DNA of 64,000 bases from an uncultured Gammaproteobacteria bacterium (GCA_964651815.1 CAZYWG010000001.1:129189-193188), one strand, 5' to 3'. Shown: positions 1 to 26,019, counted from the stretch's first letter. Translations and numbers: made by a program. The notes: generated by a model from the sequence alone, not told the origin.

Positions 1-276
1 GAAGACTCCGTCCCCACAACAGCTCCAACCCCAGTCCCAAGTGAAACAATTTCTCCTACGCAGGCTTTACAAACAAACGTTTTGATAACAAATACTCCAA
101 CTGGGTTTTTAAGAGTGCGGGCAACACCTTCTGTGGGAGGCACCCAAATTGCAGAAGTCAAACCTGGAGAAAAATATATATATGTAGATGAAAATGATTC
201 CTGGTTTGAAATTCAGTTAAATGACGGATCAAAAGGCTGGGTTAGTAAATCCTACACGCAAAAGGTTAACCAATAA
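1..276 (+). CDS. C-terminal fragment of a larger secreted protein: Pro/Thr-rich linker followed by a bacterial SH3 (SH3b) domain (5' partial; the frame is open from base 1)
   Basis: The frame is open from position 1 and in-frame with listed ORF 82-276. The Thr/Pro linker VPTTAPTPVPSETISPT is followed by an SH3b-like sequence GFLRVRATPSVGGTQIAEVKPGEKYIYVDENDSWFEIQLNDGSKGWVSKSY. Confidence 0.6.
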   Translation, partial: EDSVPTTAPTPVPSETISPTQALQTNVLITNTPTGFLRVRATPSVGGTQIAEVKPGEKYIYVDENDSWFEIQLNDGSKGWVSKSYTQKVNQ

Positions 277-1207
277 AGTAAATAACTGTGATTGCCAAAA
301 TTCCCCAAAGAATAACTGACGCAAGTAACGACTTGTCGGAAAGAAGTACGCGGTCTGGCGACTCTCCTTCGTGTTTTTCGTAAATATCCTGTAAATATCG
401 CATGAGTCCATAAACAACCGGCAGAATTGTTATCATGAGCCACTTTCTTTGAAGATAGTACGGTAAAAAATCGGGAAGCAATATTGAAAGCGAAATCCTA
501 ACGCCTGATGGATTTTCTAGAAAAGTGAAAAGTGAATAAAAAATAAAAGTCGATGTTGCAAAAATTACAGTGTATGCAACTAGCAAATCTTCAGAATAAT
601 GGGATAAGCTCTGTCTAATTTCTTCAACGCGTGTTCCTTTATAAGATCTAAGTAAAGTTAATTCCGATCGCCTTTTCCCAATTGCCAAAAAAAGCGATAA
701 GCAAATAGTAGTTAAGAGAAGCCAAACTGAAAGATGATATCCAGTTATCACTTCCCCAGAAAAAACTCTCAATATATATCCGGTCGCAATAAAAAATATA
801 TCGAATATGACAACTGATTTAAAAACGTAAGAATACAATAATTGAAGTACAAGATAAACAAGCGCCAAAAAGAAAAATGCACTACTAATTGATCTTGAAA
901 TAAGGAGTGCAATAGTTATTATTACTATAAAAATAATAATTGCCTCTGTGGTGCTAATTAAACCGGATGCAATTGGCCTCGCCCGTTTAAATGGATGGAG
1001 TTTATCTTTTCCTATATCAACAATGTCATTAACAATATAAGTGGACGATGAAAGAAAACAAAATGCAATAAATCCAAGAATTACTCTTAAAAGAGCATCT
1101 GCAACAAAAAGTTGACCTCCAAAGATAATCGCCGCAAATAATGCAACGTTTTTAATCCACTGCCGCGGCCTAAGAAGTTTTAAAATATAAAATAAATGCT
1201 TAAGCAT
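266..1207 (-). CDS. UbiA-family prenyltransferase, decaprenyl-phosphate phosphoribosyltransferase (DPPR synthase)-like
   Basis: Polytopic membrane protein with an Asp-rich motif NDIVDIGKDKLHPFKRARPIASG (NDxxDxxxD followed by RPIASG), typical of UbiA/DPPR synthases. Confidence 0.7.
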   Translation of the reverse strand: MLKHLFYILKLLRPRQWIKNVALFAAIIFGGQLFVADALLRVILGFIAFCFLSSSTYIVNDIVDIGKDKLHPFKRARPIASGLISTTEAIIIFIVIITIALLISRSISSAFFFLALVYLVLQLLYSYVFKSVVIFDIFFIATGYILRVFSGEVITGYHLSVWLLLTTICLSLFLAIGKRRSELTLLRSYKGTRVEEIRQSLSHYSEDLLVAYTVIFATSTFIFYSLFTFLENPSGVRISLSILLPDFLPYYLQRKWLMITILPVVYGLMRYLQDIYEKHEGESPDRVLLSDKSLLASVILWGILAITVIYFIG

Positions 1208-2261
1208 TTTCTACTCCTCCCTTTTTAGCAATAAACTTTAGGGTTAAAATAAATGCACCAACTACAACAACTACTAGAATTATAGCAAAAAGCTTGCCAC
1301 GACTCGATAGATTTAAAGCAAAGAACCCAAGCAGCAATGAAACTGCCCAATAAAATATTGCAATTTTTCTTTGTCCAAACCCTTGAGCAAGAAGTAAGTG
1401 GTGCAAATGTTCCCTGTCTCCTTTAAAAGGCGAGCGTCCCGACAAAATTCTACGTAAAAAAATAAACACAAAATCTGCAGCGGGCACTCCCATAACTAGT
1501 AACGCAGTTGCGAGTTTTGCCCCAGACATGATTGATAAAACCCCCAGTAAAAAACCAAGAATTGTTGCCGAATAACCAGGGAAAATTTTAGCCGGATAAA
1601 AATTGTAGAACAAGAATCCCAGTGCTGCTCCTGCAACTATAAAAGAAGCTTCTGCAACAATAATATTTCCTTGTGTTAAAACCGGGAATCTTAGTGAAGC
1701 AATTCCAATAGATATTGCGGCGATTGCTGCAATCCCCGGCATCTGACCATCAACTCCTTTACTCCAATTAAGCATGTTCATAATCCAAACAATCCACAGA
1801 ATTGCGAGTATCGATTGAACTGAAAACGAAATGCCAAAAATATTGTATGTGAAGCCGGCAAAATGTAGTATTCCTCCAAACGGATTTGTAATAAAAGATA
1901 TATGCACACCAATAAAAACAACTATTGCTGCGCAAATAATGTTTCCTCCAAACCTTAAATAAGGCGATAAATCATACCTATCATCTAGAAGTCCAATGAT
2001 AACCGCTAGTCCTCCGGCTAAGATTATTGAAATAAATATTTTATCAAGCGGTATGAAGAACAAAAATCCAAGAATTGCCCCAATATAAATGGGTAAACCG
2101 CCTGCCCTGGGAAGTGTTTTCTTATGGATTATAGCCGGATGCTTGTGTTTTTTGGGATCATCGACCAATTTAAATTTGTTTGCCAAAATAATTGTGACTG
2201 GAATTAGTATTAAGACAACAAAAAATGAAAACAAAAAAGGGATTAAAAAATTAACAATCAT
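1200..2261 (-). CDS. Polyprenyl-phosphate sugar-1-phosphate transferase of the MraY/WecA family (glycosyltransferase family 4)
   Basis: 353-aa polytopic protein with DDRYDLSPYLRF and NMLNWSKGVDGQ motifs resembling the MraY/WecA DDxxD and NxxNxxDGxDG motifs. It overlaps the UbiA gene by 8 nt. Confidence 0.65.
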   Translation of the reverse strand: MIVNFLIPFLFSFFVVLILIPVTIILANKFKLVDDPKKHKHPAIIHKKTLPRAGGLPIYIGAILGFLFFIPLDKIFISIILAGGLAVIIGLLDDRYDLSPYLRFGGNIICAAIVVFIGVHISFITNPFGGILHFAGFTYNIFGISFSVQSILAILWIVWIMNMLNWSKGVDGQMPGIAAIAAISIGIASLRFPVLTQGNIIVAEASFIVAGAALGFLFYNFYPAKIFPGYSATILGFLLGVLSIMSGAKLATALLVMGVPAADFVFIFLRRILSGRSPFKGDREHLHHLLLAQGFGQRKIAIFYWAVSLLLGFFALNLSSRGKLFAIILVVVVVGAFILTLKFIAKKGGVENA

Positions 2262-2264
2262 ATT

Positions 2265-2663
2265 TTAAAAAACCAAAAAAATTATTTGCCCAAATGCTAC
2301 TAAAGATAGCATTGTAAACAACAGGCAATTAAAAGAAAGTATTCTTGAGATAAGAGTATTTGTTCTATAAAATATTGTTGAAAGGATATTGTTTAAAATG
2401 AATACCAACACCAGTATTAATGGAATAAAAAGTATTGCCCATGATGGATAAAGCCTGTCAACGCCCCATGGGTTACTATTAAGTAAAGGAATTAATGGAG
2501 GGAGTTTTGGCAAAATAAACAATATAAATAAAGTTTGTATTACAATTAAAAATTCAGCTGCAGATATAGAATATTTTATTATCTTGTCAGAGAAAACTTC
2601 TTTAAAACTGTCTTTCATAAATAGTTGAATTTGAAAATTTATATCTGAGATCGTAACCGTCAA
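2265..2663 (-). CDS. Small hydrophobic membrane protein, function unknown (start possibly at the internal Met near 2618)
   Basis: ORF with 3-4 predicted TM helices. It overlaps the upstream GT-C gene by 17-62 nt depending on the start. Confidence 0.35.
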   Translation of the reverse strand: MTVTISDINFQIQLFMKDSFKEVFSDKIIKYSISAAEFLIVIQTLFILFILPKLPPLIPLLNSNPWGVDRLYPSWAILFIPLILVLVFILNNILSTIFYRTNTLISRILSFNCLLFTMLSLVAFGQIIFLVF

Positions 2664-4104
2664 GAAAACTTGCTATCTCAGGACCTTCTTTTGTTTGAAT
2701 TATATATCGTGGGTTTTTTTGTGCAATAGCTTTTTTAGTCTCTTCTACCGCATTTTTGTAAAAAGTTATGTGATATGCAACGGCGTAACGCCCTGGCGGA
2801 AGCTTTCCAGTGAGCGCGTATATTTGAGCGCTGTCACTCCACAAGAAAATACCTTGAGACTTAATTGTGTTTAAATTTATAAATCTTGCAATATCATAAT
2901 CACGAGGTGTGTTATGGTCAAAAAAAGTTTGATAAGAAACAAGATTCTTACCTCCTGTAACGAAAGAAAAATAGTTTTGATAATAAGGAATAATTTTTGT
3001 ATAAAATTTAAAATTATGATTTATAAAAAATAAAATAATTAAAATTAGTGGGATTGTAAACATAAGATGTTTTTTACTTTCTATCATATAACCTAATACA
3101 AGCGATGCTGCCGGAAGAACAACCAAGAGATAGTGGGTGTAAGGACGAGCTGAAAAAAAGGCGTCAAACACTGAGAAGAAAAACCAGATGAAAATAACAA
3201 ACCCAAGTTTTCCTAAACTTTTCCTAAAACGAAAAGTAATTAAAGTAGCAATCACGAGTAAGAACAGTTTTAGAAATATCAATCCCATTGGAAAAAGAAA
3301 AAAATTTCCATAACCAACGTACCCAACATTTTGCGAAAAAGTAGCACGGAAAAAATCCAAAATTGCGCTATTTAAAAAGAAATATAACGAAGTTAAAATG
3401 ATGGGAATTATAAACGCTATAAGCAAAACCGTTTCCTGCTGAAAAGTTTTAAAAAGATTTTTTACTTCAATTACAACGTCTTTTTTTGTGAAAGTTATTT
3501 TATCAAAAAACCTCATTCCAAATGTTGCAACTGAAAATGCTGCTAAATCAAAAATTGCAACGATTTTGGTTAAAAAAGCCAGCGAAAGTAATACCCCAGC
3601 CAAACTAATATTCAAAAAGGAATTTTTATTACGGTTTACAAAAAGTAGATAAAAAGCAATAAGTGTGGGTAGAACCATGAAATTTTCAGCATTTGCAATA
3701 TTTCCTTCAATAATGGGCAAACCAAACATTAAAGCAAAAAATGCGGTTGAAATAAAAATAGAATAAATGTTACTAAAAATCTTTTTAGCAATTACAAAAA
3801 ATACTAAAACTGATAATAAGCCGACAATTAAAGAAGCAAGCTTTGAGTAGAACTGATCACCATTAAATAATGCATATATAAGGTATAAAATTGGCGGTTT
3901 GTTGTCCCATATTTGGCTATACAAAATTCTACCATTCCGAATAGCGGAACCAACAACCTCATATATTCCTTCATCACCGTACCAATATGGCTCTGATACG
4001 CTGGGTAAACGAAATAAGGAAAAAAATAAAACTACTATTGAAATAAAAAAAACTTCAATATTATTGAAGTGAATATCTAGAAAATCCTCAATACTTTTGA
4101 TCAT
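2602..4104 (-). CDS. GT-C fold glycosyltransferase, ArnT/PMT (GT39/GT83)-like polyprenyl-phosphate-sugar-dependent transferase
   Basis: 500-aa protein with more than 10 TM helices. The N-terminal loop motif YWYGDEGIYEVVGSAIRNGRILYSQIWDNKPPILYLIYALF is typical of the PMT_2/ArnT family. Confidence 0.6.
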   Translation of the reverse strand: MIKSIEDFLDIHFNNIEVFFISIVVLFFSLFRLPSVSEPYWYGDEGIYEVVGSAIRNGRILYSQIWDNKPPILYLIYALFNGDQFYSKLASLIVGLLSVLVFFVIAKKIFSNIYSIFISTAFFALMFGLPIIEGNIANAENFMVLPTLIAFYLLFVNRNKNSFLNISLAGVLLSLAFLTKIVAIFDLAAFSVATFGMRFFDKITFTKKDVVIEVKNLFKTFQQETVLLIAFIIPIILTSLYFFLNSAILDFFRATFSQNVGYVGYGNFFLFPMGLIFLKLFLLVIATLITFRFRKSLGKLGFVIFIWFFFSVFDAFFSARPYTHYLLVVLPAASLVLGYMIESKKHLMFTIPLILIILFFINHNFKFYTKIIPYYQNYFSFVTGGKNLVSYQTFFDHNTPRDYDIARFINLNTIKSQGIFLWSDSAQIYALTGKLPPGRYAVAYHITFYKNAVEETKKAIAQKNPRYIIQTKEGPEIASFLDGYDLRYKFSNSTIYERQF

Positions 4105-5594
4105 GATTTCTCAGTGACACGGTACTCAAGTCTCTTCCCAATTATCAATTGCACGTGTGATATTAAAGCCGGCAGAGACGAAAGGAAAAAACCGGAAATT
4201 GGCATGAGCACAAATTCAAGCGGAAATATAAATTGCCTAAATTTTGAAACTTTTGTTTTTTTGTTTCTCATATCAAAATCTATGTATATCAAAACAAACA
4301 ATGCGAATAAACATAGCGTTAAAATAAATCCGGACATTCTTGGTAAGTTATACCCAAGACTCGTCCTGGTAAAAACAGGGTTAAGAAAAGCAATTAGATT
4401 GGCTGAGATTGTAATTATGTACCAGTTAACTGGCCAAAGGATATGGTCTAATAGTACATTTCCAACAAGATACGTTTTCTTCCAGAATGGGGCCTCATGT
4501 GCAAGTATCCACCATTTTACATATACGGCATCGTCTGAAATTCCCCATGACCAGCGCCTTTCTTGGTTATATTTGTTAAGAAGACTTTTTGTATAAGTTG
4601 CAGATCTAGGCGCATCCATGGATGTTTTCAAAAAAATTGGATCAACACTTACCTTTCCATTAGTTGCGAAAAACGCCTTAAAGAAAATTCTATAATCTTC
4701 CGGAATTACATCAGTATCCCAATAATTTATTTCCTTTAACAACTTAAAAGAAAGTGAGTATACGGAATTAGGAATTAACCTTAAACCTTGGACTAATAGA
4801 GAAATTCGCCATAAACTCCCAAAAAATGAAATTATCCTAATAAATGAAGGCACCTGCCAGAAATTATTGTATGTAACGTTTGCAGATTGCCAAAAAAGCC
4901 TATGTGGATCAGGAGATCTTAAGAATTCGTAAGACAGATAAGCAAAAAATTGTTGATCAAATATCGCGTCGGCATCTACTGATGAGACGGTTAAAAAGTT
5001 GACGTCGATTTTACGTTCGTCGAGTAAAATTTTTTCAGCGCAACGTCCTGCATATGCTTGATTTGATGATTTTCCTTTTACTTCAAGTGGACTATCCGGG
5101 TGGAAAGTTGAATAAAATCCACCAAAAACGTTTTTATATTCTAACGCAAGCATCTTTGCTTTTTCTTTAGCATCTGTTTCTCTTTCTTCAAACGCTATAA
5201 AAACATAGATTCTTTCAGTCGGAAACGTTTGCTCCCTAAACGAGTCAATTGTTTCTTTAATTTTTGCGAGACTCTCTTGATATGTTGGAATGATTACAAC
5301 GTGCCCTAGTTTTGAAAAATTTGGCAAAACTTTTGCTTTTGAAAGGAAATCAGTTTTTTCAGCTTTTTTAATCTTTCTCGAAGCAATGAAAGCGCAAATT
5401 GCTAAATTCCCGGATTTATAAAGCCAGTACATATTGAAAAAAATTATAAAGTATGCAAGCTGAGTAGGAAAAAAAATCGCACCCCAAAAGGGCATACTTA
5501 TTAAAAAGATTGCAAAAGTTGGAGGAATTATTTCTAATAATCGGATTGATTTTCTAGGGTATCTTGTAAAGATTTTTGTTGCTAGAGTGTGCAT
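4101..5594 (-). CDS. Processive family-2 glycosyltransferase (cellulose/chitin/hyaluronan synthase-like) flanked by TM helices
   Basis: N- and C-terminal TM helices surround a GT2 core with VVIIPTYQES, a DxD-like SSVDADAIF motif and the Q(Q/R)xRW motif QERRWSWG. Confidence 0.7.
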   Translation of the reverse strand: MHTLATKIFTRYPRKSIRLLEIIPPTFAIFLISMPFWGAIFFPTQLAYFIIFFNMYWLYKSGNLAICAFIASRKIKKAEKTDFLSKAKVLPNFSKLGHVVIIPTYQESLAKIKETIDSFREQTFPTERIYVFIAFEERETDAKEKAKMLALEYKNVFGGFYSTFHPDSPLEVKGKSSNQAYAGRCAEKILLDERKIDVNFLTVSSVDADAIFDQQFFAYLSYEFLRSPDPHRLFWQSANVTYNNFWQVPSFIRIISFFGSLWRISLLVQGLRLIPNSVYSLSFKLLKEINYWDTDVIPEDYRIFFKAFFATNGKVSVDPIFLKTSMDAPRSATYTKSLLNKYNQERRWSWGISDDAVYVKWWILAHEAPFWKKTYLVGNVLLDHILWPVNWYIITISANLIAFLNPVFTRTSLGYNLPRMSGFILTLCLFALFVLIYIDFDMRNKKTKVSKFRQFIFPLEFVLMPISGFFLSSLPALISHVQLIIGKRLEYRVTEKS

Positions 5595-5599
5595 ATGTT

Positions 5600-6430
5600 T
5601 TACGGTTTCAGCTGGAACAGGTGCTCAAAATTTGAGTAAATTTGGCTTTGAAAATCAGCAAAAGTCACGCCGGTAAGCTGTGCCAAATAATCACCTATAA
5701 TTATAACATTTTTAGGCTCGTTACGTTGCCCGCGTAACGGAACGGGTGTAAGAAATGGTGCATCTGTCTCGGTTAAAATTCGGTCAAGCGGAACCTCTCT
5801 TGCAAGGTCTGGCAAAGCTACTGTTTCGCCGGGTGCGATACCCTTATAAGTAATATTTCCGTCAAACCCTATAAAAAATCCTAATTCCAGCGCATCTTTT
5901 AAAACTTCTTGAGTCCCGGCAAAACAATGAAACATTCCGGGTGGATTTTGGAAACGACTTTTGTATTCTCCAAGTATTCTAACTACATCTTCGCCGGCCA
6001 AACGATTATGAATTTGCAAAGGTAATTTTAACTCGATCGAAAGCTCAATCTGTTGGCGAAATGTCTCTTCCTGGATTTTCTTATCAACAATCCCGTTCGA
6101 TTTATAAGTATGGTAATCGAGGCCGATTTCACCGATTCCAATGACCTTGTCCCTCTGCGCTATTTTTCGCAAATTTTCAAACCAGTCTTTCTGGAGTTCT
6201 CCTTCAAATTCTTGATCTGCTTTATCCGCATGATGAGGGTGTACACCAACAATTGCATACATATTTTCATATTTATAAGCCAACTCAACAGCACGTATAC
6301 TTGATGGAATACTTGTACCAGTGTTAACTATCGCCTTGACTCCAGCATCGAATGCGCGGCGTGCAACTTCATCATAATCCTGGTCAAACGAGTGTAAATT
6401 TAAGTGACAATGGACATCAATCATAAGCAA
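5600..6430 (-). CDS. tatD: TatD-family metal-dependent hydrolase/DNase
   Basis: Starts MLMIDVHCHLNL, with the IGEIGLDYH and HNR motifs characteristic of TatD. Confidence 0.8.
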   Translation of the reverse strand: MLMIDVHCHLNLHSFDQDYDEVARRAFDAGVKAIVNTGTSIPSSIRAVELAYKYENMYAIVGVHPHHADKADQEFEGELQKDWFENLRKIAQRDKVIGIGEIGLDYHTYKSNGIVDKKIQEETFRQQIELSIELKLPLQIHNRLAGEDVVRILGEYKSRFQNPPGMFHCFAGTQEVLKDALELGFFIGFDGNITYKGIAPGETVALPDLAREVPLDRILTETDAPFLTPVPLRGQRNEPKNVIIIGDYLAQLTGVTFADFQSQIYSNFEHLFQLKP

Positions 6431-6484: not shown

Positions 6485-6748
6485 ATGAGTATTTCCCAAA
6501 TTGCCAACATCATAGGCTATATCGCTGCGGGAGTCGGAATAATTACATTTTTTCCTCAAGCTTTCAATGTTTGGAAAACTAAAAATACAAAAAGTATATC
6601 TTTGGGTACTTTCGTTATGCTCGCACTCGTCTCTATTTTGTGGACTACGTATGGATTTCTCATAATTGCTTATCCTGTTATCCTAGTGAATGTAGTTGTT
6701 TTTGTCATGACTGCATATATAACAATTATGAAATTAAAATACAAATGA
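6485..6748 (+). CDS. SemiSWEET / PQ-loop (MtN3-family) sugar transporter
   Basis: 87-aa protein with 3 TM helices and a PQ motif (FFPQAFNVWKTKNTKSISLGTFVMLAL). Size and topology match SemiSWEET. Confidence 0.7.
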   Translation: MSISQIANIIGYIAAGVGIITFFPQAFNVWKTKNTKSISLGTFVMLALVSILWTTYGFLIIAYPVILVNVVVFVMTAYITIMKLKYK

Positions 6749-12609: not shown

Positions 12610-14067
12610 ATGCATAATAAAGATACAAAACAATATCCGGCTCCACTTCCACCCTTTGATATAAAACAGCAGCTTAAAGATACAATTCAGGAAAAATGTG
12701 GTGTTTTTGGAATATGGGGAAAGGACTTTGGTGCCTCTCAAATCGCCTATTATGGACTTTGGGCGCTTCAGCACAGAGGGCAAGAAGCAACTGGAATTAG
12801 TAGTACGGACGGCGAAAAATTATACACAAAAAAAGGGGAGGGTCTTGTAGCCCACGTTTATGCCGAAAAGGATTTAATTAAATTAAAGGGACATGCCGCA
12901 ATTGGACATAATCGCTATGGAACATCCGGTAATAAAAGGGTCGTCCATCCTCAACCCGCAACCGGTATAAGCGGTAAATTAGCCCTTGCCCACAACGGAA
13001 ATCTTTTTTCAACAAAAAAACTAGAAGAATTTTTTAGGAAAAATCATATCCAAGCACGAGGCTTAAATGACTCCGAAATGATGCAAAGAGCTTTAGAATT
13101 TGTTTTTACTAAAACAGGATCTTTGGAAAAAGCTGTTAGAACCTGCTTTCCGCTTTTCACAGGAACCTTCTGCTTATTACTCTTAACAAAAGATGAGCTC
13201 GTTGCAGTAAGAGATTCATTTGGAATTCGCCCACTTTGTCTTGGTAAACTCAACAAAGGGTATGTTGTTGCATCTGAAACTTGTGCACTGAACGCTGTCT
13301 ATGCAAAATACATAAGAGAAGTGTTACCCGGAGAAATGTTAGTAATAAATAAAAAGGGATTAAAGTCATACGGACTTGCAACGGGTACACAAAAACTTGA
13401 CGTTTTTGAATTTATATATTTTGCAAGACGCGATAGTGTTCTTCTTGGAAAAAGTGTTAATCAAATTAGAAGAAATTTGGGTATACAATTGGCCCGTGAA
13501 TGCAAAAATTTAAAAGCAGACCTTGTTATTCCAGTTCCTGACTCAGGAATTCCGGCAGCTCTTGGGTTTTCATGGCAAAGTGGAATTCCTTTTGACCATG
13601 GTTTTGTAAAAAATAGATATGTACATAGAACTTTTATTCGTCCTGTCCAGACGCATCGAGAAATTGGTGTTACATTAAAAATTAATCCACTTCCTCAAGT
13701 TCTTGGTGGGAAATCTATTGTTGTAGTGGACGATTCAATTGTTCGCGGCACTACAACTAAAAAAATTATTGCGATGCTTAAAAAAGCGGGGGCAAAAAAA
13801 GTTCATATGATGGTTTCATCCCCTCCAATTAAATATCCGGATTTTTATGGAATAGATACACCTGACCAAAAACAGTTAATCGCCGCGAATATGAATGTTG
13901 AGGCAATTAGAAAATATATTGGTGCAGATACGTTGCATTATCTATCATACGAAGGTTTATTTAATGCGATAGAACTTCCAGAACAAATGTTTTGTACAGC
14001 GCTTTTTACAGGAAACTATCCAATAGACATCATGGAGAAAAAAACCGAGGTCAATTTTGCAGTTTAA
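12610..14067 (+). CDS. purF: Amidophosphoribosyltransferase
   Basis: The N-terminal nucleophile Cys sits in CGVFGIWG. The PRTase motif VVDDSIVRGTT lies in the C-terminal half. Confidence 0.93.
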   Translation: MHNKDTKQYPAPLPPFDIKQQLKDTIQEKCGVFGIWGKDFGASQIAYYGLWALQHRGQEATGISSTDGEKLYTKKGEGLVAHVYAEKDLIKLKGHAAIGHNRYGTSGNKRVVHPQPATGISGKLALAHNGNLFSTKKLEEFFRKNHIQARGLNDSEMMQRALEFVFTKTGSLEKAVRTCFPLFTGTFCLLLLTKDELVAVRDSFGIRPLCLGKLNKGYVVASETCALNAVYAKYIREVLPGEMLVINKKGLKSYGLATGTQKLDVFEFIYFARRDSVLLGKSVNQIRRNLGIQLARECKNLKADLVIPVPDSGIPAALGFSWQSGIPFDHGFVKNRYVHRTFIRPVQTHREIGVTLKINPLPQVLGGKSIVVVDDSIVRGTTTKKIIAMLKKAGAKKVHMMVSSPPIKYPDFYGIDTPDQKQLIAANMNVEAIRKYIGADTLHYLSYEGLFNAIELPEQMFCTALFTGNYPIDIMEKKTEVNFAV

Positions 14068-14702
14068 ATTGTTTTGATTACTGCATTGTCTCCCAAAACT
14101 TCAATCAGACCCTTATTTTCAGCTTTTTTAAGACGCGTGTAAAGAGATTCAACCGTATCGTTTTTTTTAACCGGGACAAATACCCGTTTTAAAACCGGTC
14201 CAAAATCCGCTTTTTCTGTAACAATATGAATTGAAGAAGCAGCTGTACTTAATGTTAAAAAATTTGTAACGGCAGCATCAGTTAACATTCCCTGATTCCA
14301 AGGAATTTCTGTTCCGTCTTCCAAACGGAAAACGCCATTTTCGTGGTCCGGTATGGCACCCGGATGAACGTTAATCGTTTTACCACGAAAAGTTTTAAAA
14401 AATGGTTTAGTCAAAATTCTATTAAATCCCGCGAGGATCGCGGCGTCTATTTTGTGTTTATTCAAAATTTCCGCAATTTCCTGACTGTATATATCTCTGA
14501 ACTTCTCTTTACTTGTTTCTTCAGGTTTTTGATAGGGCGTGACTTTAAAATCGATCTGTTTCTCTTTTGCAATTTTTACACCAGCCGCGTCTTCCCTATC
14601 AGCTATCACAAGTTTTATATAAAACCCGGCGCCAATCAATGCTCTAAGATTTGAACCGGTCCCTTTGTTTGAAACCAAAACCGCAAGTCTAACTTTGTTC
14701 AT
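14064..14702 (-). CDS. purN: Phosphoribosylglycinamide formyltransferase
   Basis: 212-aa formyltransferase domain beginning RLAVLVSNKGTGSNLRALI, with an INVHPG active-site region. Its position in the pur operon fits. Confidence 0.8.
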   Translation of the reverse strand: MNKVRLAVLVSNKGTGSNLRALIGAGFYIKLVIADREDAAGVKIAKEKQIDFKVTPYQKPEETSKEKFRDIYSQEIAEILNKHKIDAAILAGFNRILTKPFFKTFRGKTINVHPGAIPDHENGVFRLEDGTEIPWNQGMLTDAAVTNFLTLSTAASSIHIVTEKADFGPVLKRVFVPVKKNDTVESLYTRLKKAENKGLIEVLGDNAVIKTI

Positions 14703-15808
14703 CTCAAATCAAGTGTATCAGAAGAATAAGTGAGGTTTTTGGGTTTTATGATAACTTGCTTTGGCCCTTTTTCAACGTATCCCGCGTCAATTGCTTGAAA
14801 TTTATTTTGGCGAACAATTTCTAGGGTTTTTTTAACTTCTTTTTGAGGTACAAAAATTACATAATCCTGGCCCATGTTATATGTTTGGTACATTTCATAA
14901 TCATCCAGGTTTGCATGCTTTTGAATAAATCCAAATATTTCCTGCGGCTTAAATATTTTTTCAACTATATATGTGAATGCCGGTTTTGCACGCATAATCT
15001 TTCTCATTCCATGTCCTGAGATATAATTCATATAATGAATATCAACATTTGCGTCAAGTAAATCTTCCACAAGTTTTGCATAAATATTACTTTTATTTAA
15101 AACTGCTTCTCCATAAATCTTTCCGCTAAGAAGTTTTGCACCGTACCCGCCTTTTACTCTTTTTGCAACTGCACGTGCTAAAGAAATTCCACTTGCGTTA
15201 ACTCCCTCGCTTTTAAGGAGAATTATTCTGTCTCCAGCTTTTAATTTTTTATCATGGATAAATCTTTTTGCAGGGCCTATTATTCCAACTGCTGAGCCTC
15301 CGAGATCAATTGTATTTGGAATAATAATTTGTTTAAGAGTTGGTGTCTCACCACCGCCCCAAGAAGCACCTGAAAGGTCACACGCTTTTTTCCAACCCGT
15401 AATTAAATCTTTCATCCGCGCTTCATCCGCAAGCCAATCATTATTCTCTATAGCCCAATATGCATGGACTGTCAGGGGTTTTGCGCCAACTGAAATTAAG
15501 TCATTAATAATGTAGGCGACAGTGTCATTTGCAATAACATCATAGTAAGTTTTTCCGGTAATTTTTCTTGTTTCATCAGCAACTAAATTTTTTGTACCAA
15601 GACCTTCAATCATTGTTGCCATATAAGTACTGCCTTGTTTCCAAACGTATGCTGATTCACCACGGCTCTCAGAAAGTTCTGAAAATCCACGTTTTTTTAG
15701 ATTTATTCCAGTCTTATATGCAGAGTTTTGAGCAAGTTTTTTGATGGGGTCTTTTGTTGAATAATTGTCTCCTACTTGGTAGGAAGTAATTGATTTTTGT
15801 TTTTTCAC
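14699..15808 (-). CDS. purM: Phosphoribosylformylglycinamidine cyclo-ligase (AIR synthase)
   Basis: PurM/AIRS N- and C-terminal domains, including DTVAYIINDLISVGAKPLTVHAYWA. The gene is translationally coupled to purN. Confidence 0.85.
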   Translation of the reverse strand: MKKQKSITSYQVGDNYSTKDPIKKLAQNSAYKTGINLKKRGFSELSESRGESAYVWKQGSTYMATMIEGLGTKNLVADETRKITGKTYYDVIANDTVAYIINDLISVGAKPLTVHAYWAIENNDWLADEARMKDLITGWKKACDLSGASWGGGETPTLKQIIIPNTIDLGGSAVGIIGPAKRFIHDKKLKAGDRIILLKSEGVNASGISLARAVAKRVKGGYGAKLLSGKIYGEAVLNKSNIYAKLVEDLLDANVDIHYMNYISGHGMRKIMRAKPAFTYIVEKIFKPQEIFGFIQKHANLDDYEMYQTYNMGQDYVIFVPQKEVKKTLEIVRQNKFQAIDAGYVEKGPKQVIIKPKNLTYSSDTLDLR

Positions 15809-15812
15809 GATT

Positions 15813-16757
15813 TTAATTAAGATATTTGTTTAGTTCTGATGTTGCCACTGGAATTATACCAGGTTTATAAAATTGTAATGTTCCTGCTAAAATTCCTACT
15901 TTCACGGCTTCTAAAATGTTTGCGCCTTTACTTAAAGATGCAACTAGTCCCGCCATTGTCTGGTCTCCACAACCAGTTTCATTCATTGTCTTGGTTTTTT
16001 TGATTTTGGGAATCTTAATATGCTCCTGGTTATTCTTGTTAAAAAAATAAGCTCCGTTTTTTCCGTTTGTAATTAAAAGATTTTCAACATTTTTTGAAAG
16101 TAGTTTCCTTGCTGCTTTTTGTGCGGATGTAAAATCATTCACTTTTATACCTGTTAATATTTCAGCTTCGTGTTCGTTGGGTTTTAATAAAAAAAGCCTT
16201 TTATTCAAAACTTCTTTTGGATCATTAATATTGGATATTCCACCTGGTTCAATCAAAACTTTCGAATTATATTTATTTGCCATTTTAATAGCATACAAAT
16301 ATGTTTTTACTGGTTGTGTAAATTCAACTATAATGTATTCCGCTCGAGATACAATTCCTTCTGCTTTGTCTATATCTTCTTTTGAAAAATCTTGATTGGC
16401 TCCATGAACCACGTAAATAGTGTTTTCGCCGCTATTATTAACAGGTATTATGCCTATCCCGGGAAATTTTCCTTTTTCATCTACATCAACATAATCCGTA
16501 TTTACGCCTATTTTTTTAAGAGCTTTTATTGGAACTTCCCATAAACCGTATGGATCCTTACTACTTTTACCAATCATTGCAACAGTATTTTTAGAAGTGA
16601 GTACTCCTGTCATTTCCGCGATATTTCTTCCTTTTCCTCCAGCTCCGATCCTGAAATCCTTTGCATATACCATTTGTCCAGACTTTGGAAAATTATCAAA
16701 ACCAGATATGAATATATCGGTGTTCAAACTTCCTATAACAACTATTCTTCCATTCAT
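15813..16757 (-). CDS. PfkB-family carbohydrate kinase (ribokinase-like) embedded in the purine operon
   Basis: The N-terminus VVIGSLNTDIFI...GGKGRNIA and a C-terminal GCGDQTMAG motif (a variant of the GAGD anion hole) identify a ribokinase-type PfkB kinase. Confidence 0.75.
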   Translation of the reverse strand: MNGRIVVIGSLNTDIFISGFDNFPKSGQMVYAKDFRIGAGGKGRNIAEMTGVLTSKNTVAMIGKSSKDPYGLWEVPIKALKKIGVNTDYVDVDEKGKFPGIGIIPVNNSGENTIYVVHGANQDFSKEDIDKAEGIVSRAEYIIVEFTQPVKTYLYAIKMANKYNSKVLIEPGGISNINDPKEVLNKRLFLLKPNEHEAEILTGIKVNDFTSAQKAARKLLSKNVENLLITNGKNGAYFFNKNNQEHIKIPKIKKTKTMNETGCGDQTMAGLVASLSKGANILEAVKVGILAGTLQFYKPGIIPVATSELNKYLN

Positions 16758-16760
16758 ATT

Positions 16761-17567
16761 TTATGACTCTTTGGCAAACTTAATCATTCCTTCAAAAATA
16801 AAACCGCCTAGCGCTTTCACGTTTCCGCGTCTCCAGTTAGGATGCTGGGTTAAATCGACAATTTTTTCAGGATGTGGCATCAGTCCAATTATATGTCCAG
16901 TTGGGTCAGTAACACCGGCAATTGCGTTAAGCGCTCCATTGGGATTTTCAGGATATTTTTGGGTGGGGCTTCCGTGATCATCAACATATCTAACAAAAAC
17001 CAAATTCTCATTTTCAATAAGAGTCAGAGTATTATTATCTGTATAAAATTTCCCCTCTCCGTGATTAACCGCAATATCAACGATTTGCCCAACATAAGGC
17101 TTAAGACAAACCGCCCGCGAATCTTCAATTCTTACTTTGACAAAACGGCATTCAAAATGACCCGAATCATTATTTGTTAAAGTGACATCCATCTCTCCAA
17201 TATGGTTAAACGGAAGAAGCCCAGTTCTTACTAAAACCTGAAATCCATTGCATATTCCAATTACCTGGCTACCTTTGGTTACAAATTCTTCAAGTTGATT
17301 TCTTAAAAAAGATACCAGCTCAGTAGCAAGGATTTTTCCAGAGACTATATCGTCCCCATATGCAAATCCTCCTGGAATTGCAAGTATATTAAACTCTTTT
17401 AATTTGCGGCTTTTATCTCTGAGCTCATTAACGTGGATAAATTCACAATCTCCACCATACTTTTGAAAAGCGTAAGACAATTCTTCGTCACAATTTATTC
17501 CGTCTGCTCTTAAAATACAAACTTTTGGTTTAATCATGGGAAAAATTTCTGCATGGGTTCTTTCCAT
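16761..17567 (-). CDS. purQ: Phosphoribosylformylglycinamidine synthase I, the glutaminase subunit
   Basis: Class-I glutamine amidotransferase with a catalytic Cys in GICNGFQVL and HGEG downstream. It overlaps the 3' end of purL by 34 nt. Confidence 0.88.
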   Translation of the reverse strand: MERTHAEIFPMIKPKVCILRADGINCDEELSYAFQKYGGDCEFIHVNELRDKSRKLKEFNILAIPGGFAYGDDIVSGKILATELVSFLRNQLEEFVTKGSQVIGICNGFQVLVRTGLLPFNHIGEMDVTLTNNDSGHFECRFVKVRIEDSRAVCLKPYVGQIVDIAVNHGEGKFYTDNNTLTLIENENLVFVRYVDDHGSPTQKYPENPNGALNAIAGVTDPTGHIIGLMPHPEKIVDLTQHPNWRRGNVKALGGFIFEGMIKFAKES

Positions 17568-20392: not shown

Positions 20393-20516
20393 AAAAGAAG
20401 AATAAATAACGTCATTCTCATTTTCAACGTTTTATGTATATATTATTTTTCCCGCAAAATCAACACTATTTACTCCTTGCCATATTCAATAAATTATTAT
20501 AAGATATACTTTCTCT

Positions 20517-21680
20517 ATGGCAATGTCTCGTGAAGGACTTACATATAGCACACGGCCGGACCACACACGTTCTCCAGAAAGAGAACGCTTCAACTTGGTT
20601 ATAGCGTCTGATCTTGAAGGCCCACATCTATTAGGGGATACAGCATTAAACGTAATGTCTGCCTATGTTCGTCCCGCAAACGGTGATCCAAATATTGATT
20701 ATGGTGCGGAATTATATGGACAAACATATGAATGGTTTGAAGAAAATTTCGATTCAAAGGGTCTTGGTCAAGAAGGTTCTGATATTGCTTTAGCTCTTGG
20801 TCTACTCATGAATTTTGGTGTTACCGGTAAAAATTTACACGAGCATGCTCTTACCTCAAAGATGGCTCCTTTTTCAGATAAATATAGAAGCTATGCCAAA
20901 TCAGAAAGCGGACTTTTATTTGGTGTGACTACAGCATGGGAGCAACCTCACAAACCAATAGTTCTTGGTCAGTTAAATTTTGACGGAATGAAAGGAACCG
21001 ATTTCCCGATTGATGACTCTACTAGAAAAATGAAAGAGTCCGGAAAATTGGATGAAGAGATGGAATTAGTTGGTAAATTTTTAGAAGACAGTTTTACCTT
21101 AATTGAAAATCGTGCTAATGCGGTTGATGAGGAGAGAGATCTCTTTGCTGTATTGCTCAGAGAAAGAATTAACAAATTTTATGGAGAGGAGATTGGAATA
21201 TCATGGGATGATAAAGGCAAGATGATTCCGGCTGCCGGTGGATTTAGAACTAAGCTTGGAGAAATCATGTCAACTCTTGATGTAATTGGTGATAAAAGAA
21301 AAGAACAGGTGGCTCAAGATTTGTTTACGAATTCTGCAACACCAAATGCGGTAAAACTTGCTATAGGAGATGGATTTAACGACAGGCGTATGCTGGCAAG
21401 CGCCCCTTGGTCAATAGGGCTCAATGGGGCAAAAGCAGCGGAAGCGGCAAAAATAGGTGTTATAACTCCGGATATCAGCACACTAATTGAAATAACGGAG
21501 CTGATTAAAAGGGACCCAAGACCAACACCTGCACGAATTGAACAAGTTGTTTTTGAATCAAATAGAATCCTAGGTGACAGGGCAATTGTGCACGCTGGAG
21601 GGCCACTATCCAAATTTCACCAAGACAAACACCAAGATATGAAAAAGGAAATTAGAGGAAAAGGTGCGCTTCTTCCCTAA
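20517..21680 (+). CDS. Hypothetical protein, possibly a HAD-superfamily-like hydrolase
   Basis: 387-aa protein. The C-terminal GDGFNDRRML resembles HAD motif IV (GDGxNDxxM). The N-terminal VIASDLEGP is a degenerate motif I. GC content is slightly above the local average. Confidence 0.35.
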   Translation: MAMSREGLTYSTRPDHTRSPERERFNLVIASDLEGPHLLGDTALNVMSAYVRPANGDPNIDYGAELYGQTYEWFEENFDSKGLGQEGSDIALALGLLMNFGVTGKNLHEHALTSKMAPFSDKYRSYAKSESGLLFGVTTAWEQPHKPIVLGQLNFDGMKGTDFPIDDSTRKMKESGKLDEEMELVGKFLEDSFTLIENRANAVDEERDLFAVLLRERINKFYGEEIGISWDDKGKMIPAAGGFRTKLGEIMSTLDVIGDKRKEQVAQDLFTNSATPNAVKLAIGDGFNDRRMLASAPWSIGLNGAKAAEAAKIGVITPDISTLIEITELIKRDPRPTPARIEQVVFESNRILGDRAIVHAGGPLSKFHQDKHQDMKKEIRGKGALLP

Positions 21681-21683
21681 AAT

Positions 21684-24302: not shown

Positions 24303-24444
24303 ATAAGATCAACAACAGTTAACAATTAACAACCGGCGAAGAGTATTCGGTCAATTGTCAGTTGCTAGAGGTCAATTGTTGTAATATCCAGTATATCATG
24401 CTAAAATTCCCATGCCCAGATAGAAAATGCTGTAATTCTCTGTC

Positions 24445-24801
24445 TTGGAAAATATGCCGGTAATAAAGTCTGCAATTAAAAAATTAAGGAAAGACAGAAA
24501 GCGAGAGCGTGAAAATGACGCTTTCCGTAATGAGCTTGATAAAACTGTAAAAGAGGCTAAAAAATTGAAAACCTCAAAAGCGGTTTCTTCAGCTTCTTCT
24601 ATTTTGGATCGTGCTGTTAAGAAAAACCTTCTTCACAAAAACCGAGCAGCCAGAATTAAATCTTCTCTTGCAAAACTTGCCGGCCCCGTAAAAGGAAAAG
24701 CCAAACTAGCCGAAAAAACCACTTCCGTTAAAACTAAAAGTGTAACAAAAACGAAGTCTAAAAAAACTCAATCAAAACCCCCTAAGAAAACCTCCAAATA
24801 A
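24445..24801 (+). CDS. rpsT: 30S ribosomal protein S20 (bS20) with a Lys-rich C-terminal extension
   Basis: MPVIKSAIKKLRKDRKRERENDAFRNEL...LHKNRAARIKSSLAKL is a bS20 signature. The start is possibly at MPVIKS (24454). Confidence 0.85.
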   Translation: MENMPVIKSAIKKLRKDRKRERENDAFRNELDKTVKEAKKLKTSKAVSSASSILDRAVKKNLLHKNRAARIKSSLAKLAGPVKGKAKLAEKTTSVKTKSVTKTKSKKTQSKPPKKTSK

Positions 24802-26018: not shown

Positions 26019-26019
26019 T

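Follow-up and report, generated by a model that had tools for sequence, protein, structure and literature searches.

The question raised by this locus is which sugar polymer is made by a compact set of minus-strand genes in which a homolog of Rv3806c, an enzyme of the mycobacterial arabinan pathway, is encoded beside predicted glycosyltransferases. The genes occupy positions 266-5594 of the 64,000-nucleotide stretch of DNA analysed here, which will be referred to as the window. Most likely, they are co-transcribed and serve to build a cell-envelope glycopolymer in a Levybacteria-like Patescibacterium (CPR).

Organization of the operon and assignment of its enzymes

An earlier note on this DNA had described four consecutive minus-strand genes. 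The four open reading frames were recovered on that strand at 266-1207 (313 aa), 1200-2261 (353 aa), 2602-4104 (500 aa) and 4101-5594 (497 aa), but the count had to be raised to five, as a 117-aa reading frame (2265-2618) had been overlooked. The operon is tightly packed and translationally coupled: adjacent genes overlap by 8, 17 or 4 nt or are separated by only 3 or 5 nt, and no convincing internal terminator was detected in it. A gene encoding a TatD-family metal-dependent hydrolase (5600-6430, minus strand; PF01026 253 bits, TIGR00010 246 bits) is located 5 nt upstream of the start of the GT2 gene (4101-5594); it probably shares the transcript with the module as the first gene of the apparent operon.

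The UbiA-fold protein (266-1207, Pfam PF01040) is assigned by its sequence as a polyprenyl-phosphate 5-phosphoribosyltransferase (PPPRS) of the DPPR-synthase family. It scored 219.6 bits with the NCBIfam DPPRS model NF008977 (cutoff 234), 206.8 bits with NF008978 (cutoff 207) and 152 bits with a third model; that the values stay slightly below the curated cutoffs was counted against the assignment. The protein matched M. tuberculosis Rv3806c (PDB 8j8j) with E 6.7e-34 and contains the motifs NDIVDIGKD (residues 60-68) and RPIASG (77-82), and all 11 PRPP-site residues of Rv3806c are identical, seven of them being invariant among 59 diverse homologs. The proposal of a DPPR-synthase-like UbiA enzyme with NDxxDxxxD and RPIASG motifs was thus confirmed, but its label "actinobacterial-style" is outdated, since PPPRS-based pentofuranose systems are now found in many phyla (PMC11127046). 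A strong GGGAGGAG ribosome-binding site for the PPPRS gene sits within the 3' end of the upstream gene.

Two other identities were considered for the first two enzymes. An aromatic or heme prenyltransferase of the MenA/UbiA/CyoE type, acting outside glycan synthesis, is a barely conceivable identity for the UbiA protein. The protein does belong to the Pfam UbiA family, and homologs are labelled "4-hydroxybenzoate polyprenyltransferase" in some databases; however, the NCBIfam prenyltransferase models of other UbiA subfamilies all gave 55 bits or less compared to about 220 bits for DPPRS, placing the protein on the side of the DPPR synthases rather than of the menaquinone/heme prenyltransferases. 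Moreover, the phosphoribose-binding residues K28, Y70, Q135 and Y157 of Rv3806c, whose conservation does not extend to other UbiA enzymes (PMC10994848), are all present in the window protein, and profile scores and binding residues together effectively refute the prenyltransferase identity. The neighbouring protein (1200-2261), whose gene overlaps the PPPRS start by 8 nt, is here termed GT4 after Pfam Glycos_transf_4 (PF00953, the MraY/WecA PNPT superfamily) and not after CAZy family GT4. It appears to be a TagO/WecA-type polyprenyl-phosphate HexNAc-1-phosphate transferase and should make polyprenyl-PP-HexNAc, in agreement with the polyprenyl-P sugar-1-P transferase proposed before. PF00953 was matched with 94 bits and the wecA model TIGR02380 over its full length with 99.8 bits, compared to 39.2 bits (cutoff 192) for the mraY model TIGR00445, both TIGR scores being below cutoff; the motifs are DD93-94xxD, NMLNWSKGVDG162 and HLHH285-288. 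Best tblastn matches were TagO-like proteins of Firmicutes (33-35% identity), with E. coli WecA at 27%. It is very improbable that GT4 is instead the cell's MraY, synthesizing lipid I for peptidoglycan and lying beside the UbiA gene incidentally, even though MraY proteins are the best solved-structure matches of the family profile (82 bits; GPT, 29 bits) and neither the window nor 1.4 Mb of related loci showed a second PNPT gene. Against a bona fide MraY argue the low mraY score, the HLHH motif of WecA type instead of the HHH of MraY, the annotated relatives of TagO/WecA type, and the position of the gene outside a mur/dcw context, fused to or paired with a module-specific protein.

This module-specific protein is the uncharacterised 117-aa membrane protein encoded on the minus strand between the GT-C and GT4 genes (2265-2618). 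Its probable start is the ATG at 2618, whereas the automatic ORF listing extends it to a TTG at 2663. The protein has three hydrophobic segments, and the family alignment shows a loop with the conserved sequence LPPxIPLFYSxPWGxxQL, in which P44 is invariant; none of 26 members could be placed in a Pfam or NCBIfam family. In 11 WWE3-type loci the small domain forms the N-terminal part of a continuous reading frame with GT4 (E 1e-10 to 3e-16 for the small domain), and because of this fusion the three-TM protein appears to be a dedicated partner of GT4.

The 500-aa protein (2602-4104) yielded an AlphaFold model with pLDDT 90.2 and pTM 0.89, for which all significant Foldseek matches in the PDB were GT-C enzymes (AglB, E 2e-7, followed by STT3, PglB and Pmt4). 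From this model we are confident of a GT-C fold; a D-E pair is conserved after TM1, within the invariant E38-P-x-W-Y-G-D44-E45. The ArnT likeness claimed in the earlier note is only loose, however, as ArnT was not among the best structural matches. EmbB matched only marginally (E 0.09). PMT_2 scored 23.5 bits, below the cutoff of 26.1, homologs match PF02366/PF13231, and a PDB search with the family profile gave no match; the protein falls in no described family. It is presumed to use a polyprenyl-phosphate-pentose donor outside the cytoplasm.

The GT2 protein (4101-5594) is predicted from sequence and model to be a processive, membrane-integrated synthase of the HAS/BcsA/PgaC type with the full D, DxD, ED and QxxRW catalytic set, as expected from the earlier description of a cellulose-synthase-like GT2. 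It matched PF13632 (Glyco_trans_2_3) with 30.5 bits and carries invariant D207-A-D209, E299-D300 and Q344-E-R-R-W348. In the structure model (pLDDT 84, pTM 0.85) a GT-A core is combined with two N-terminal and three long C-terminal helices, and the top Foldseek matches were hyaluronan synthases of Chlorella virus and Xenopus (E 2e-9), BcsA and chitin synthase. The sole annotated BLAST relative was B. cereus PgaC (22% identity). Among the proteins of the module, GT2 is conserved best, with 63-87% identity among 44 aligned homologs. Sequence searches found no characterised relatives of the GT-C and GT2 families, so that any donor, acceptor or polymer named for them is putative.

Conservation of the module in related loci

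Conservation was evaluated in 60 informative loci of Microgenomates and WWE3. Ahead of PPPRS, GT4 was encoded in 49 of the 60, the small protein or domain in 48 (38 times as a separate gene, 10 times as a fusion with GT4) and GT2 in 44; the GT-C was present in 21 and all four together in 19. GT2, GT4 and PPPRS occurred jointly in 44/60 loci, down to approximately 43-50% PPPRS identity, and the conserved core consists of GT2, the small protein, GT4 and PPPRS. The single most conserved feature is the adjacency of GT4 and PPPRS with overlapping codons (49/60), which is kept across lineages with differing flanks. In nearly every locus with the module, WWE3 included, the TatD gene immediately precedes GT2; in module-less Shapirobacteria loci it adjoins MetRS instead. 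Much of the Levybacteria synteny reaches into housekeeping genes, and part of the conservation is therefore inherited gene order. Nevertheless, the clustering exceeds chance, because the gene boundaries overlap or nearly touch and GT2, GT4 and PPPRS recur together in most loci. The functional linkage proposed for the module is borne out by this repeated co-occurrence, which includes three distant homologs of the module GT-C (45-50% identity), all located within the same module.

The module GT-C itself is accessory. It is missing from about two thirds of the PPPRS loci, so it cannot be the enzyme that uses the donor throughout. An independent link between PPPRS and GT-C enzymes comes from loci lacking GT4: in eight of these 11, one or two GT-C genes come immediately after PPPRS, an arrangement typical of Shapirobacteria-type genomes. 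The window encodes a second GT-C (32286-33989, plus strand; PMT_2, HPDER motif, PF13231 52.7 bits), homologs of which (33-46% identity, ~99% coverage) occur in nine Shapirobacteria-type loci, 2.2-4.8 kb downstream of PPPRS and in its orientation; there they usually come next to a more distant paralog (25-29% identity), which precedes them and directly abuts PPPRS. This second GT-C may thus be an additional consumer of the PPPRS product in the host.

The transferred sugar and comparison with known systems

The earlier note suggested an arabinan- or ribofuranose-like surface polymer and a search for the DprE1/DprE2 epimerase pair. Such a pair was absent from the 64-kb window and within 10 kb of PPPRS in ~80 related loci; the window encodes no FAD_binding_4/DprE1-like or DprE2-like protein. 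The genuine DprE1-like/DprE2-like pair of Chondrinema, which like Lactococcus has an annotated reference PPPRS system, retrieved nothing from the window (tblastn, E up to 0.01) or from the genes of the ~80 CPR PPPRS loci. A phosphoribose phosphatase or a GtrA, MATE or SMR flippase was detected neither in the window nor in any of the related CPR loci, an absence that had been overlooked before, and no conserved oxidoreductase was found among the PPPRS neighbours. With no linked epimerase pair, phosphatase or known flippase, the transferred sugar is therefore most likely ribofuranose, possibly phosphorylated, rather than arabinofuranose; ribofuranose, as the default product, is the part of the suggestion that stands.

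The reference for such systems is the three-component scheme of Kelly et al. (PNAS 2024, PMC11127046), in which a PPPRS, a flippase and a GT-C introduce Ribf, Xylf or Araf outside the cytoplasm. In C. youngae O1/O2 these components are ORF15 (PPPRS-PRP), ORF14 (MATE flippase) and ORF12 (GT136 GT-C) (PMC11127046). As in C. youngae, the window PPPRS has the UbiA fold and the same catalytic motifs, its gene adjoins that of a GT-C-fold enzyme, and the glycan operon depends on a WecA-type initiator; with no epimerase, the expected sugar is ribofuranose, which is the case of serotype O1. Unlike C. youngae, the module lacks a HAD (PRP) phosphatase, either as a domain or as a gene, as well as a MATE, SMR or GtrA flippase, its GT-C represents a separate family without detected sequence relation to the reference PPPRS-linked GT-Cs tested and is absent from the CPR module in most lineages, and PPPRS is translationally coupled to an initiating PNPT and linked to a synthase-type GT2, whereas C. 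youngae uses an ABC-transporter pathway. The host of the cassette on Lactococcus cremoris plasmid pF27D (a hypothetical 462-aa membrane protein, PPPRS, HAD-IB phosphatase, GtrA and LCP) is likewise a monoderm; the lactococcal PPPRS shares 31-33% identity with that of the window, and here too an LCP enzyme is encoded nearby. Unlike the CPR module, which has GT4, the small protein and GT2 instead, this cassette comes with a phosphatase and a GtrA flippase.

In mycobacteria, Rv3806c, Rv3807c, DprE1/DprE2, Rv3789 and the Aft/Emb GT-Cs form the DPA/arabinan pathway, and the WecA-primed arabinogalactan is attached by an LCP ligase. The window shares the homologous first enzyme (E 7e-34, identical PRPP site) and the general plan, in which a WecA-type enzyme primes, a GT2 polymerises, GT-Cs add sugars outside the membrane and an LCP ligase attaches the product. 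It differs in that searches for DprE1/E2, a PAP2 phosphatase and a GtrA-like Rv3789 homolog gave nothing, GT2 is an integral-membrane HAS-like synthase and not a peripheral GlfT2-type enzyme, and the GT-C is not Emb/Aft-like.

Proposed pathway and alternatives

We consider it moderately likely that the operon builds a cell-surface polymer together with a lipid-linked ribose donor decorating it, joining the three-component pentofuranose logic (PMC11127046) to a WecA-primed, synthase-type pathway. PPPRS would convert PRPP and polyprenyl phosphate into polyprenyl-phospho-5-phosphoribofuranose, while the TagO-like enzyme would prime the lipid carrier with HexNAc (polyprenyl-PP-HexNAc) and GT2 would polymerise and export a beta-linked backbone. 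The model for the latter is Salmonella O:54, where WecA and WbbF carry out synthase-dependent O-antigen assembly (PMC2841628). Both combine a WecA-type initiator with an integral-membrane processive GT2 that polymerises and exports (PMC2841628), an activity presumed for the GT2 of the window; PPPRS, GT-C and the small protein are not part of the O:54 system. From gene linkage and the WbbF analogy, GT4 and GT2 may act together; that synthases of the HAS/BcsA type do not normally need a lipid-PP primer was counted against this partnership. The PPPRS product would be flipped to the outer face, with dephosphorylation and flipping carried out by unlinked or unrecognised proteins; that these two steps have no protein assigned near PPPRS was counted against the proposal. 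Outside, the module GT-C, and probably also the second GT-C, would transfer the pentofuranose onto the polymer or a surface protein. The function of LCP proteins is established in Gram-positive bacteria and is the basis for the predicted role of the LytR-CpsA-Psr (LCP) protein at 37755-38921 (minus strand, PF03816 122 bits) as ligase joining the polyprenyl-PP-linked product to peptidoglycan.

Two alternatives to this decorated polymer concern the use of the PPPRS product. In a mycobacterium-style route, DPPR would be dephosphorylated and 2'-epimerised by DprE1/DprE2-type enzymes to polyprenyl-P-arabinofuranose, from which the GT-C would build an arabinan-like polymer. PPPRS is a clear Rv3806c homolog, the DPA users of mycobacteria are GT-C enzymes, and the epimerase search covered the window and the related loci, leaving room elsewhere in the genome. 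Moreover, an FAD oxidoreductase (27821-29104) and a GalE-like extended SDR "epimerase" (33919-35064, plus strand; PF01370 149 bits, HpnA/GalE-type NCBIfam matches), which overlaps the 3' end of the second GT-C, flank the GT-C genes in the window's second cluster and could form a non-homologous epimerase pair; in two Shapirobacteria-type loci PPPRS is preceded by a homolog of the FAD protein, at a distance of 1.3-3.4 kb. The SDR is, speculatively, a candidate polyprenyl-phosphate-pentose epimerase, by analogy to ORF13 of C. youngae O2, the undP-Ribf to undP-Xylf epimerase, which is also a GalE-like SDR (PMC11127046). The blank epimerase searches, the lack of a conserved oxidoreductase beside PPPRS and the marginal EmbB match nevertheless make arabinan improbable. 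A separation into two pathways appears less doubtful, though still rather unlikely: GT4, the small protein and GT2 would make a polymer of their own, and PPPRS would mainly feed GT-Cs encoded elsewhere (32286-33989 and DUF2298 proteins), for example in glycosylation of surface or pilus-associated proteins, adjacency reflecting shared use or regulation of the polyprenyl-phosphate pool. In Shapirobacteria-type genomes PPPRS indeed belongs to a MurJ-PilN-PilO-Big_13-...-GT-C-GT-C-DUF2298 cluster, to which the window is syntenic at 22.6-38.9 kb. The module can do without its GT-C, and arabinosylation of P. aeruginosa pilin runs on a PPPRS pathway according to work cited in PMC11127046. Against this separation stand the overlapping GT4-PPPRS arrangement, which tops conservation despite differing flanks, and the module GT-C family, which was encountered only in this operon.

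If the decorated-polymer proposal is true, it extends the recently described bacterial strategy of pentofuranose decoration to the tiny, uncultured CPR bacteria; evidence for a mycobacterium-style arabinan was not found. In favour of the proposal, the window also encodes the PRPP-using PurF and other purine genes, taken as a sign that PRPP is available, and, as a wall-building context, LCP, MurJ and FemAB.

Operon layout and the phosphoribosyltransferase

The minus-strand operon at 266-5594 was found to contain one gene more than the four listed in the earlier note, which were all confirmed; the list had overlooked an ORF of 117 amino acids with an ATG start and three hydrophobic segments (2265-2618, minus strand), counterparts of which are annotated by gene callers in related contigs. 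The operon runs from the GT2 synthase (4101-5594, 497 aa) through a GT-C enzyme (2602-4104, 500 aa), the small ORF and the GT4 gene (1200-2261, 353 aa) to the UbiA-fold enzyme (266-1207, 313 aa), referred to as PPPRS (polyprenyl-phosphate phosphoribosyltransferase). Its first gene is probably that of a TatD-family hydrolase (5600-6430, minus strand), which lies 5 nt upstream of GT2. Overlaps of 4 nt (GT2/GT-C), 17 nt (GT-C/small ORF) and 8 nt (GT4/UbiA) and a gap of 3 nt between the small ORF and GT4 were observed, and the ribosome-binding site of the UbiA gene (GGGAGGAG) is located within the GT4 coding sequence. These gene boundaries are those of a single translationally coupled transcript. 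Consensus scans for promoters and terminators were no better than shuffled background.

Several genes flank the operon. TatD is found directly upstream of GT2 in Microgenomates and WWE3 despite differing genes further upstream (FtsH in WWE3; GroEL or CutA in Levybacteria). The convergent gene right after PPPRS (1-276, plus strand), cut by the window start, encodes the C-terminal SH3 part of a PEGA + SH3_3 protein; as this neighbour of PPPRS is kept in 58 related loci, a role as a wall-associated partner or an acceptor is conceivable. Divergent from the operon, an 87-aa ORF (6485-6748, plus strand) encodes a homolog of PQ-loop/SemiSWEET-type sugar transporters with 49% identity to a PQ-loop-annotated gene at the same position in the related locus L093. 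The assumed CPR-like nature of the host was corroborated by a GC content of ~35% and by nearest homologs in Candidatus Levybacteria and other Patescibacteria. Levybacteria- or Microgenomates-type loci (related PPPRS loci L009, L011, L013, L017, L022 and others) were met in many MAG records from binchicken co-assemblies that are named "uncultured Gammaproteobacteria", "Pseudomonadales" or "Candidatus Saccharibacteria", and the organism labels on these records look like placeholders unfit for taxonomy.

The UbiA-fold protein contains NDIVDIGKD at residues 60-68 followed by RPIASG at 77-82, with N60, D61, D64, D68, R77 and P78 invariant in 59 homologs. In Mycobacterium tuberculosis Rv3806c the PRPP site is formed by R22, K28, Y70, N73, D77, K87, R90, Q135, Y138, K143 and Y157, and those among them that bind the phosphoribose are not shared by other UbiA enzymes (PMC10994848). 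The window protein has the identical residue at all eleven PRPP-site positions; seven of these are invariant across the 59 diverse homologs, and the other positions, Q135 excepted, vary conservatively (K/R, Y/F). The top NCBIfam models were three for decaprenyl-phosphate phosphoribosyltransferase (219.6, 206.8 and 152.3 bits), with 164.8 bits for the phosphatase-fused UbiA model. The curated equivalog cutoffs were narrowly missed (NF008977, 219.6 versus 234 bits; NF008978, 206.8 versus 207 bits), and these two models exceeded every prenyltransferase model by more than 150 bits, the UbiA, chlorophyll synthase, heme O synthase and GGGP types all scoring at most 55 bits. The best solved-structure match was Rv3806c (8j8j, E 6.7e-34), compared to only E 3e-8 for an archaeal UbiA. 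Motifs, model ranking, structural match and PRPP-site residues together strongly argue for a phosphoribosyltransferase and not a prenyltransferase, as had been proposed, and speak against a grouping with the quinone/heme enzymes. The epithet "actinobacterial-style" was overstated, since annotated DPPR synthases homologous to PPPRS are found in Lactococcus, Bacteroidota, haloarchaea and elsewhere; the family comprises 1,638 cluster representatives at E ≤1e-30. The DPPR synthase name has already been given by NCBI to some Levybacteria proteins. Our literature search found no paper joining PPPRS and Patescibacteria, and the supplement and survey of Kelly et al. contain no CPR example among their entries (PMC11127046).

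The initiating transferase, the synthase and the GT-C enzyme

The GT4 protein belongs to Pfam Glycos_transf_4 (94 bits), the MraY/WecA PNPT superfamily, and not to CAZy GT4. The wecA model (TIGR02380) aligned over the full length with 99.8 bits against a cutoff of 326. The protein carries DD93-94xxD, NMLNWSKGVDG and a WecA-type HLHH motif; the K in place of the first D of the second motif is the family-consensus residue, outside the invariant and ≥90% columns. Its best annotated relatives are TagO-like "MraY family glycosyltransferases" of Firmicutes (33-35% identity), E. coli WecA being 27% identical. The earlier note had raised a bona fide MraY as the alternative, and among solved structures the family profile did match MraY best (82 bits; eukaryotic GPT, 29 bits). 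The mraY model (TIGR00445), however, yielded 39.2 bits against a cutoff of 192, the motif is HLHH instead of HHH, and the gene stands next to GT2, GT-C and PPPRS with no dcw/mur context, so that MraY was rejected. No second PNPT paralog was found in the window and related loci. Taken together, model scores, motifs and TagO-like relatives suggest that GT4 is a TagO/WecA-like initiating transferase.

The small protein family shares a conserved loop, LPPxIPLFYSxPWGxxQL, and matched no described family. The small protein is fused in frame with GT4 in every one of the 11 WWE3-type loci (L047:7166-8671, L052:7168-8673, and in L062, L065, L073, L075, L077, L078, L080, L083 and L087), giving a protein of ~500 aa in which the small domain covers residues ~23-123 (E 1e-10 to 3e-16) and GT4 covers ~136-496. 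In these loci PPPRS lies ~1.3 kb beyond the fusion, after an opposite-strand small membrane protein and an OmpR-type response regulator. The fusion ties the small protein to GT4. We had considered it as the missing GtrA/SMR-type flippase; since it matched no flippase family and is fused to GT4 in WWE3, it was ranked as a probable GT4 subunit, ahead of a flippase role.

The GT2 family has invariant DAD, ED and QERRW motifs. Its model (pLDDT 84) was matched best in Foldseek by the hyaluronan synthases CvHAS and XlHAS1 (E 2e-9), followed by BcsA and chitin synthase, and the family profile found no sequence match in the PDB. The sole annotated BLAST relative was Bacillus cereus PgaC with 22% identity; the PgaC_IcaA model scored 20.6 bits against a cutoff of 422, and a PilZ domain is absent. 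The protein is thus assigned to the processive, membrane-integrated, HAS-like synthases, bearing out the proposed processive QxxRW GT2, and on these comparisons appears to stand outside the characterised subfamilies tested (BcsA with PilZ, PgaC equivalog).

For the GT-C protein, Pfam gave only a PMT_2 match below threshold, and no sequence relative was found in the PDB, profile searches included. An AlphaFold model from a 48-sequence alignment (pLDDT 90, pTM 0.89) had significant PDB matches exclusively to GT-C enzymes (AglB at E 2e-7, then STT3, PglB and Pmt4). EmbB reached only E 0.09 and ArnT was outside the best 50 structural matches; of the earlier term "ArnT-like GT-C" the fold is therefore retained and the ArnT likeness is not. 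GT-C enzymes carry catalytic acidic residues just after the first helix, and at this place the present family has an invariant E-P-x-W-Y-G-D-E segment. Comparison by hhalign revealed no real relation to the PPPRS-linked membrane protein of Lactococcus, the Chondrinema GT39 or the other GT-C of the window. Three homologs on long contigs (45-50% identity) are all inside the same module. The modelled fold and this linkage point to a new family tied to the PPPRS donor.

Conservation of the module and a second envelope cluster

Levybacteria contigs keep the order TatD-GT2-GT-C-small-GT4-UbiA. As the flanking housekeeping genes LepA, GroES and GroEL are conserved as well, this order alone is weak evidence for clustering. 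A search with a 12-sequence subset of the 59-sequence PPPRS alignment returned as its best 80 loci those of Levy-, Davies-, Gottesman-, Curtiss-, Shapiro- and Woesebacteria and WWE3, all of them Patescibacteria; linkage outside this group was seen solely via plasmid matches. Profile searches of the ORFs in the 60 loci that extend 6 kb or more upstream of PPPRS detected GT4 in 49, the small domain (separate or fused) in 48, GT2 in 44 and the module GT-C in 21, all four being present upstream in 19. These counts demonstrate that GT2, the small protein, GT4 and PPPRS are the conserved core and that GT-C is accessory. In WWE3-type loci (L047, L052, L061, L062, L065, L073-L075, L077-L080, L083 and L084), PPPRS is followed on its own strand, at a distance of 1.7-3.6 kb, by one or two O-antigen-ligase-like Wzy_C proteins whose C-terminal regions are TPR-like. 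Where the module is without GT-C, they may act as transferase or ligase.

Eight of the 11 loci lacking GT4, of the Shapirobacteria type, have one or two GT-C genes immediately after PPPRS, with a PMT family hit above cutoff. Their order is MurJ-PilN-PilO-Big_13 protein-(FAD oxidoreductase)-PPPRS-GT-C-GT-C-...-DUF2298, which is syntenic with 22.6-38.9 kb of the window, and the second GT-C resembles the window GT-C at 32286-33989 (33-46% identity, ~99% coverage, shared HPDER motif). The PPPRS-GT-C linkage thus recurs in two architectures, one of them that of the window operon, and the PPPRS product probably also serves this distal GT-C in the present genome.

The corresponding window region (22647-38921) represents a second envelope cluster: MurJ (minus strand), PilN, PilO, a Big_13/fn3 surface protein, an FAD oxidoreductase (PRK07233 family), a DUF2298 GT-C, a methyltransferase, a PMT_2 GT-C, a GalE-like SDR, a 184-aa protein of no known family, a second DUF2298 and an LCP enzyme (minus strand). 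In the syntenic Shapirobacteria-type loci, PPPRS sits inside this cluster directly before the GT-C genes.

A proposed pathway and its missing steps

In the three-component pathway of Kelly et al., a PPPRS with fused phosphatase produces undecaprenyl-P-ribofuranose, a MATE or SMR flippase exports the donor and a GT-C adds alpha-Ribf to the finished polymer, while an SDR (ORF13) or DprE1/E2 turns the donor into Xylf or Araf (PMC11127046). This is the closest described system and shares its PPPRS-GT-C logic with the CPR operon, where a HAS-like synthase and a TagO-like initiator with its own subunit come on top. The pairing of these two recalls the synthase-dependent O:54 route, in which WecA is paired with the integral synthase WbbF (PMC2841628). 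In contrast to the three-component system, the CPR module has no dedicated MATE/SMR/GtrA flippase and no phosphoribose 5-phosphatase.

An ORF-by-ORF scan of the window detected no PAP2/HAD phosphatase and no GtrA/SMR/MATE protein in the module, and PPPRS with its 313 aa has no extra phosphatase domain. Accessory queries were taken from two annotated cassettes, on Lactococcus cremoris plasmid pF27D (PPPRS-HAD-GtrA) and a Chondrinema plasmid (PPPRS-FAD-SDR and GT39 enzymes). Of all proteins of these cassettes, only PPPRS itself found matches in the window or any of the CPR loci; the lactococcal HAD-IB and GtrA queries hit nothing in the window or related loci. The conserved PPPRS neighbours are the PEGA/SH3 protein, a Wzy_C protein, an M23 peptidase, a response regulator and proteins matching nothing known, with no oxidoreductase, phosphatase or transporter among them. 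The only flippase candidate in the window is MurJ (22647-24302, MOP superfamily). TatD was considered as the missing phosphatase on its position only; in module-less Shapirobacteria loci, TatD adjoins MetRS. The lactococcal plasmid itself (L088, NZ_CP068515.2), mobilizable and of dairy origin, carries a complete PPPRS-HAD phosphatase-GtrA cassette accompanied by an O-antigen-ligase-like gene, a Wzx-like flippase and LCP, which predicts ribofuranose decoration of the lactococcal cell-wall polysaccharide.

An arabinan- or ribofuranose-like surface polymer had been suggested. While the enzyme module itself was upheld, a mycobacterium-like arabinan, however tempting, is unsupported, as neither a DprE1-type (FAD_binding_4) nor a DprE2-type protein of the defining epimerase pair was found in the 64-kb window, scanned ORF by ORF, or in ~80 PPPRS loci. 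As a pair, the FAD oxidoreductase and SDR of the second envelope cluster could act analogously to DprE1/E2 or ORF13 without homology to them.

Based on the PPPRS, TagO-like, GT-C-fold and HAS-like assignments, which come from sequence and structure comparison, we propose the following reactions and transfers. GT4 with the small protein would prime polyprenyl phosphate with HexNAc-1-P, and GT2 would polymerise and export a beta-linked backbone. PPPRS would form polyprenyl-P-Ribf-5-P from PRPP, which should be available given PurF and further purine enzymes encoded in the genome. Proteins outside those recognised here would dephosphorylate and flip the donor, GT-C enzymes would add the pentofuranose outside the membrane, and the LCP enzyme (37755-38921) might anchor the product to peptidoglycan. 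The partnership of GT4 and GT2, the acceptor and the final form of the sugar are what we infer in this scheme. A bolder reading, which as a whole we consider improbable, would give Microgenomates and WWE3 an undescribed core machine of four proteins, namely HAS-like synthase, TagO-like phosphotransferase with novel three-TM subunit and phosphatase-less PPPRS. The lipid-linked 5-phosphoribose would be kept phosphorylated and transferred as phosphoribosyl units. The resulting wall polymer would be anionic, similar to teichoic acids and peculiar to CPR bacteria, and the close GT4-PPPRS coupling would reflect a physical complex sharing out scarce polyprenyl phosphate between two reactions.

The envelope of CPR/Patescibacteria mediates their episymbiotic lifestyle, and to our knowledge its chemistry is almost uncharacterised. 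The operon predicts synthesis of a polyprenyl-phosphoribose donor across a large part of the Microgenomates/WWE3 radiation and therefore the display of pentofuranose-containing surface glycans. New here are the small subunit with its GT4 fusion, the GT-C family, a module without cis-encoded phosphatase, flippase and epimerase, and the conserved linkage of PPPRS with both the TagO-like transferase and the HAS-like synthase. The three-component pentofuranose paradigm of 2024 would thereby come to include another phylum-level group and a pathway of the synthase type. Testable items are PPPRS, which is assayable by published methods, the donor-linked GT-C family and the fusion-supported subunit of the TagO-like transferase.

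The 64-kb window contains at least six GT-C-type genes. Another polyprenyl-phosphate-sugar system occupies 53237-60699. Its polyprenyl-P sugar synthase (55453-56397) is GtrB/PgfS/ArnC-like, with 233 bits to PgfS, and is accompanied by an SDR dehydratase/epimerase, a methyltransferase, a split transketolase (54174-55450), a GT87 GT-C (59470-60699) and a weak PMT_2-like protein (58345-59517). The region 47295-51381 encodes a NodU/CmcH-type carbamoyltransferase (49678-51381) together with a GT2 and two SAM methyltransferases, which suggests glycans carrying methyl and carbamoyl groups. A nickel superoxide dismutase (Sod_Ni, 112 bits; 43254-43784, minus strand) is present in this CPR genome, adjoined by a 183-aa ORF with no family match (43929-44480). 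Purine de novo genes (PurF-like, PurN, PurM, PurQ and PurL) and two PfkB-family sugar kinases lie at 12610-22637, and a 387-aa protein encoded at 20517-21680 gave a faint HAD signal and otherwise no family match.
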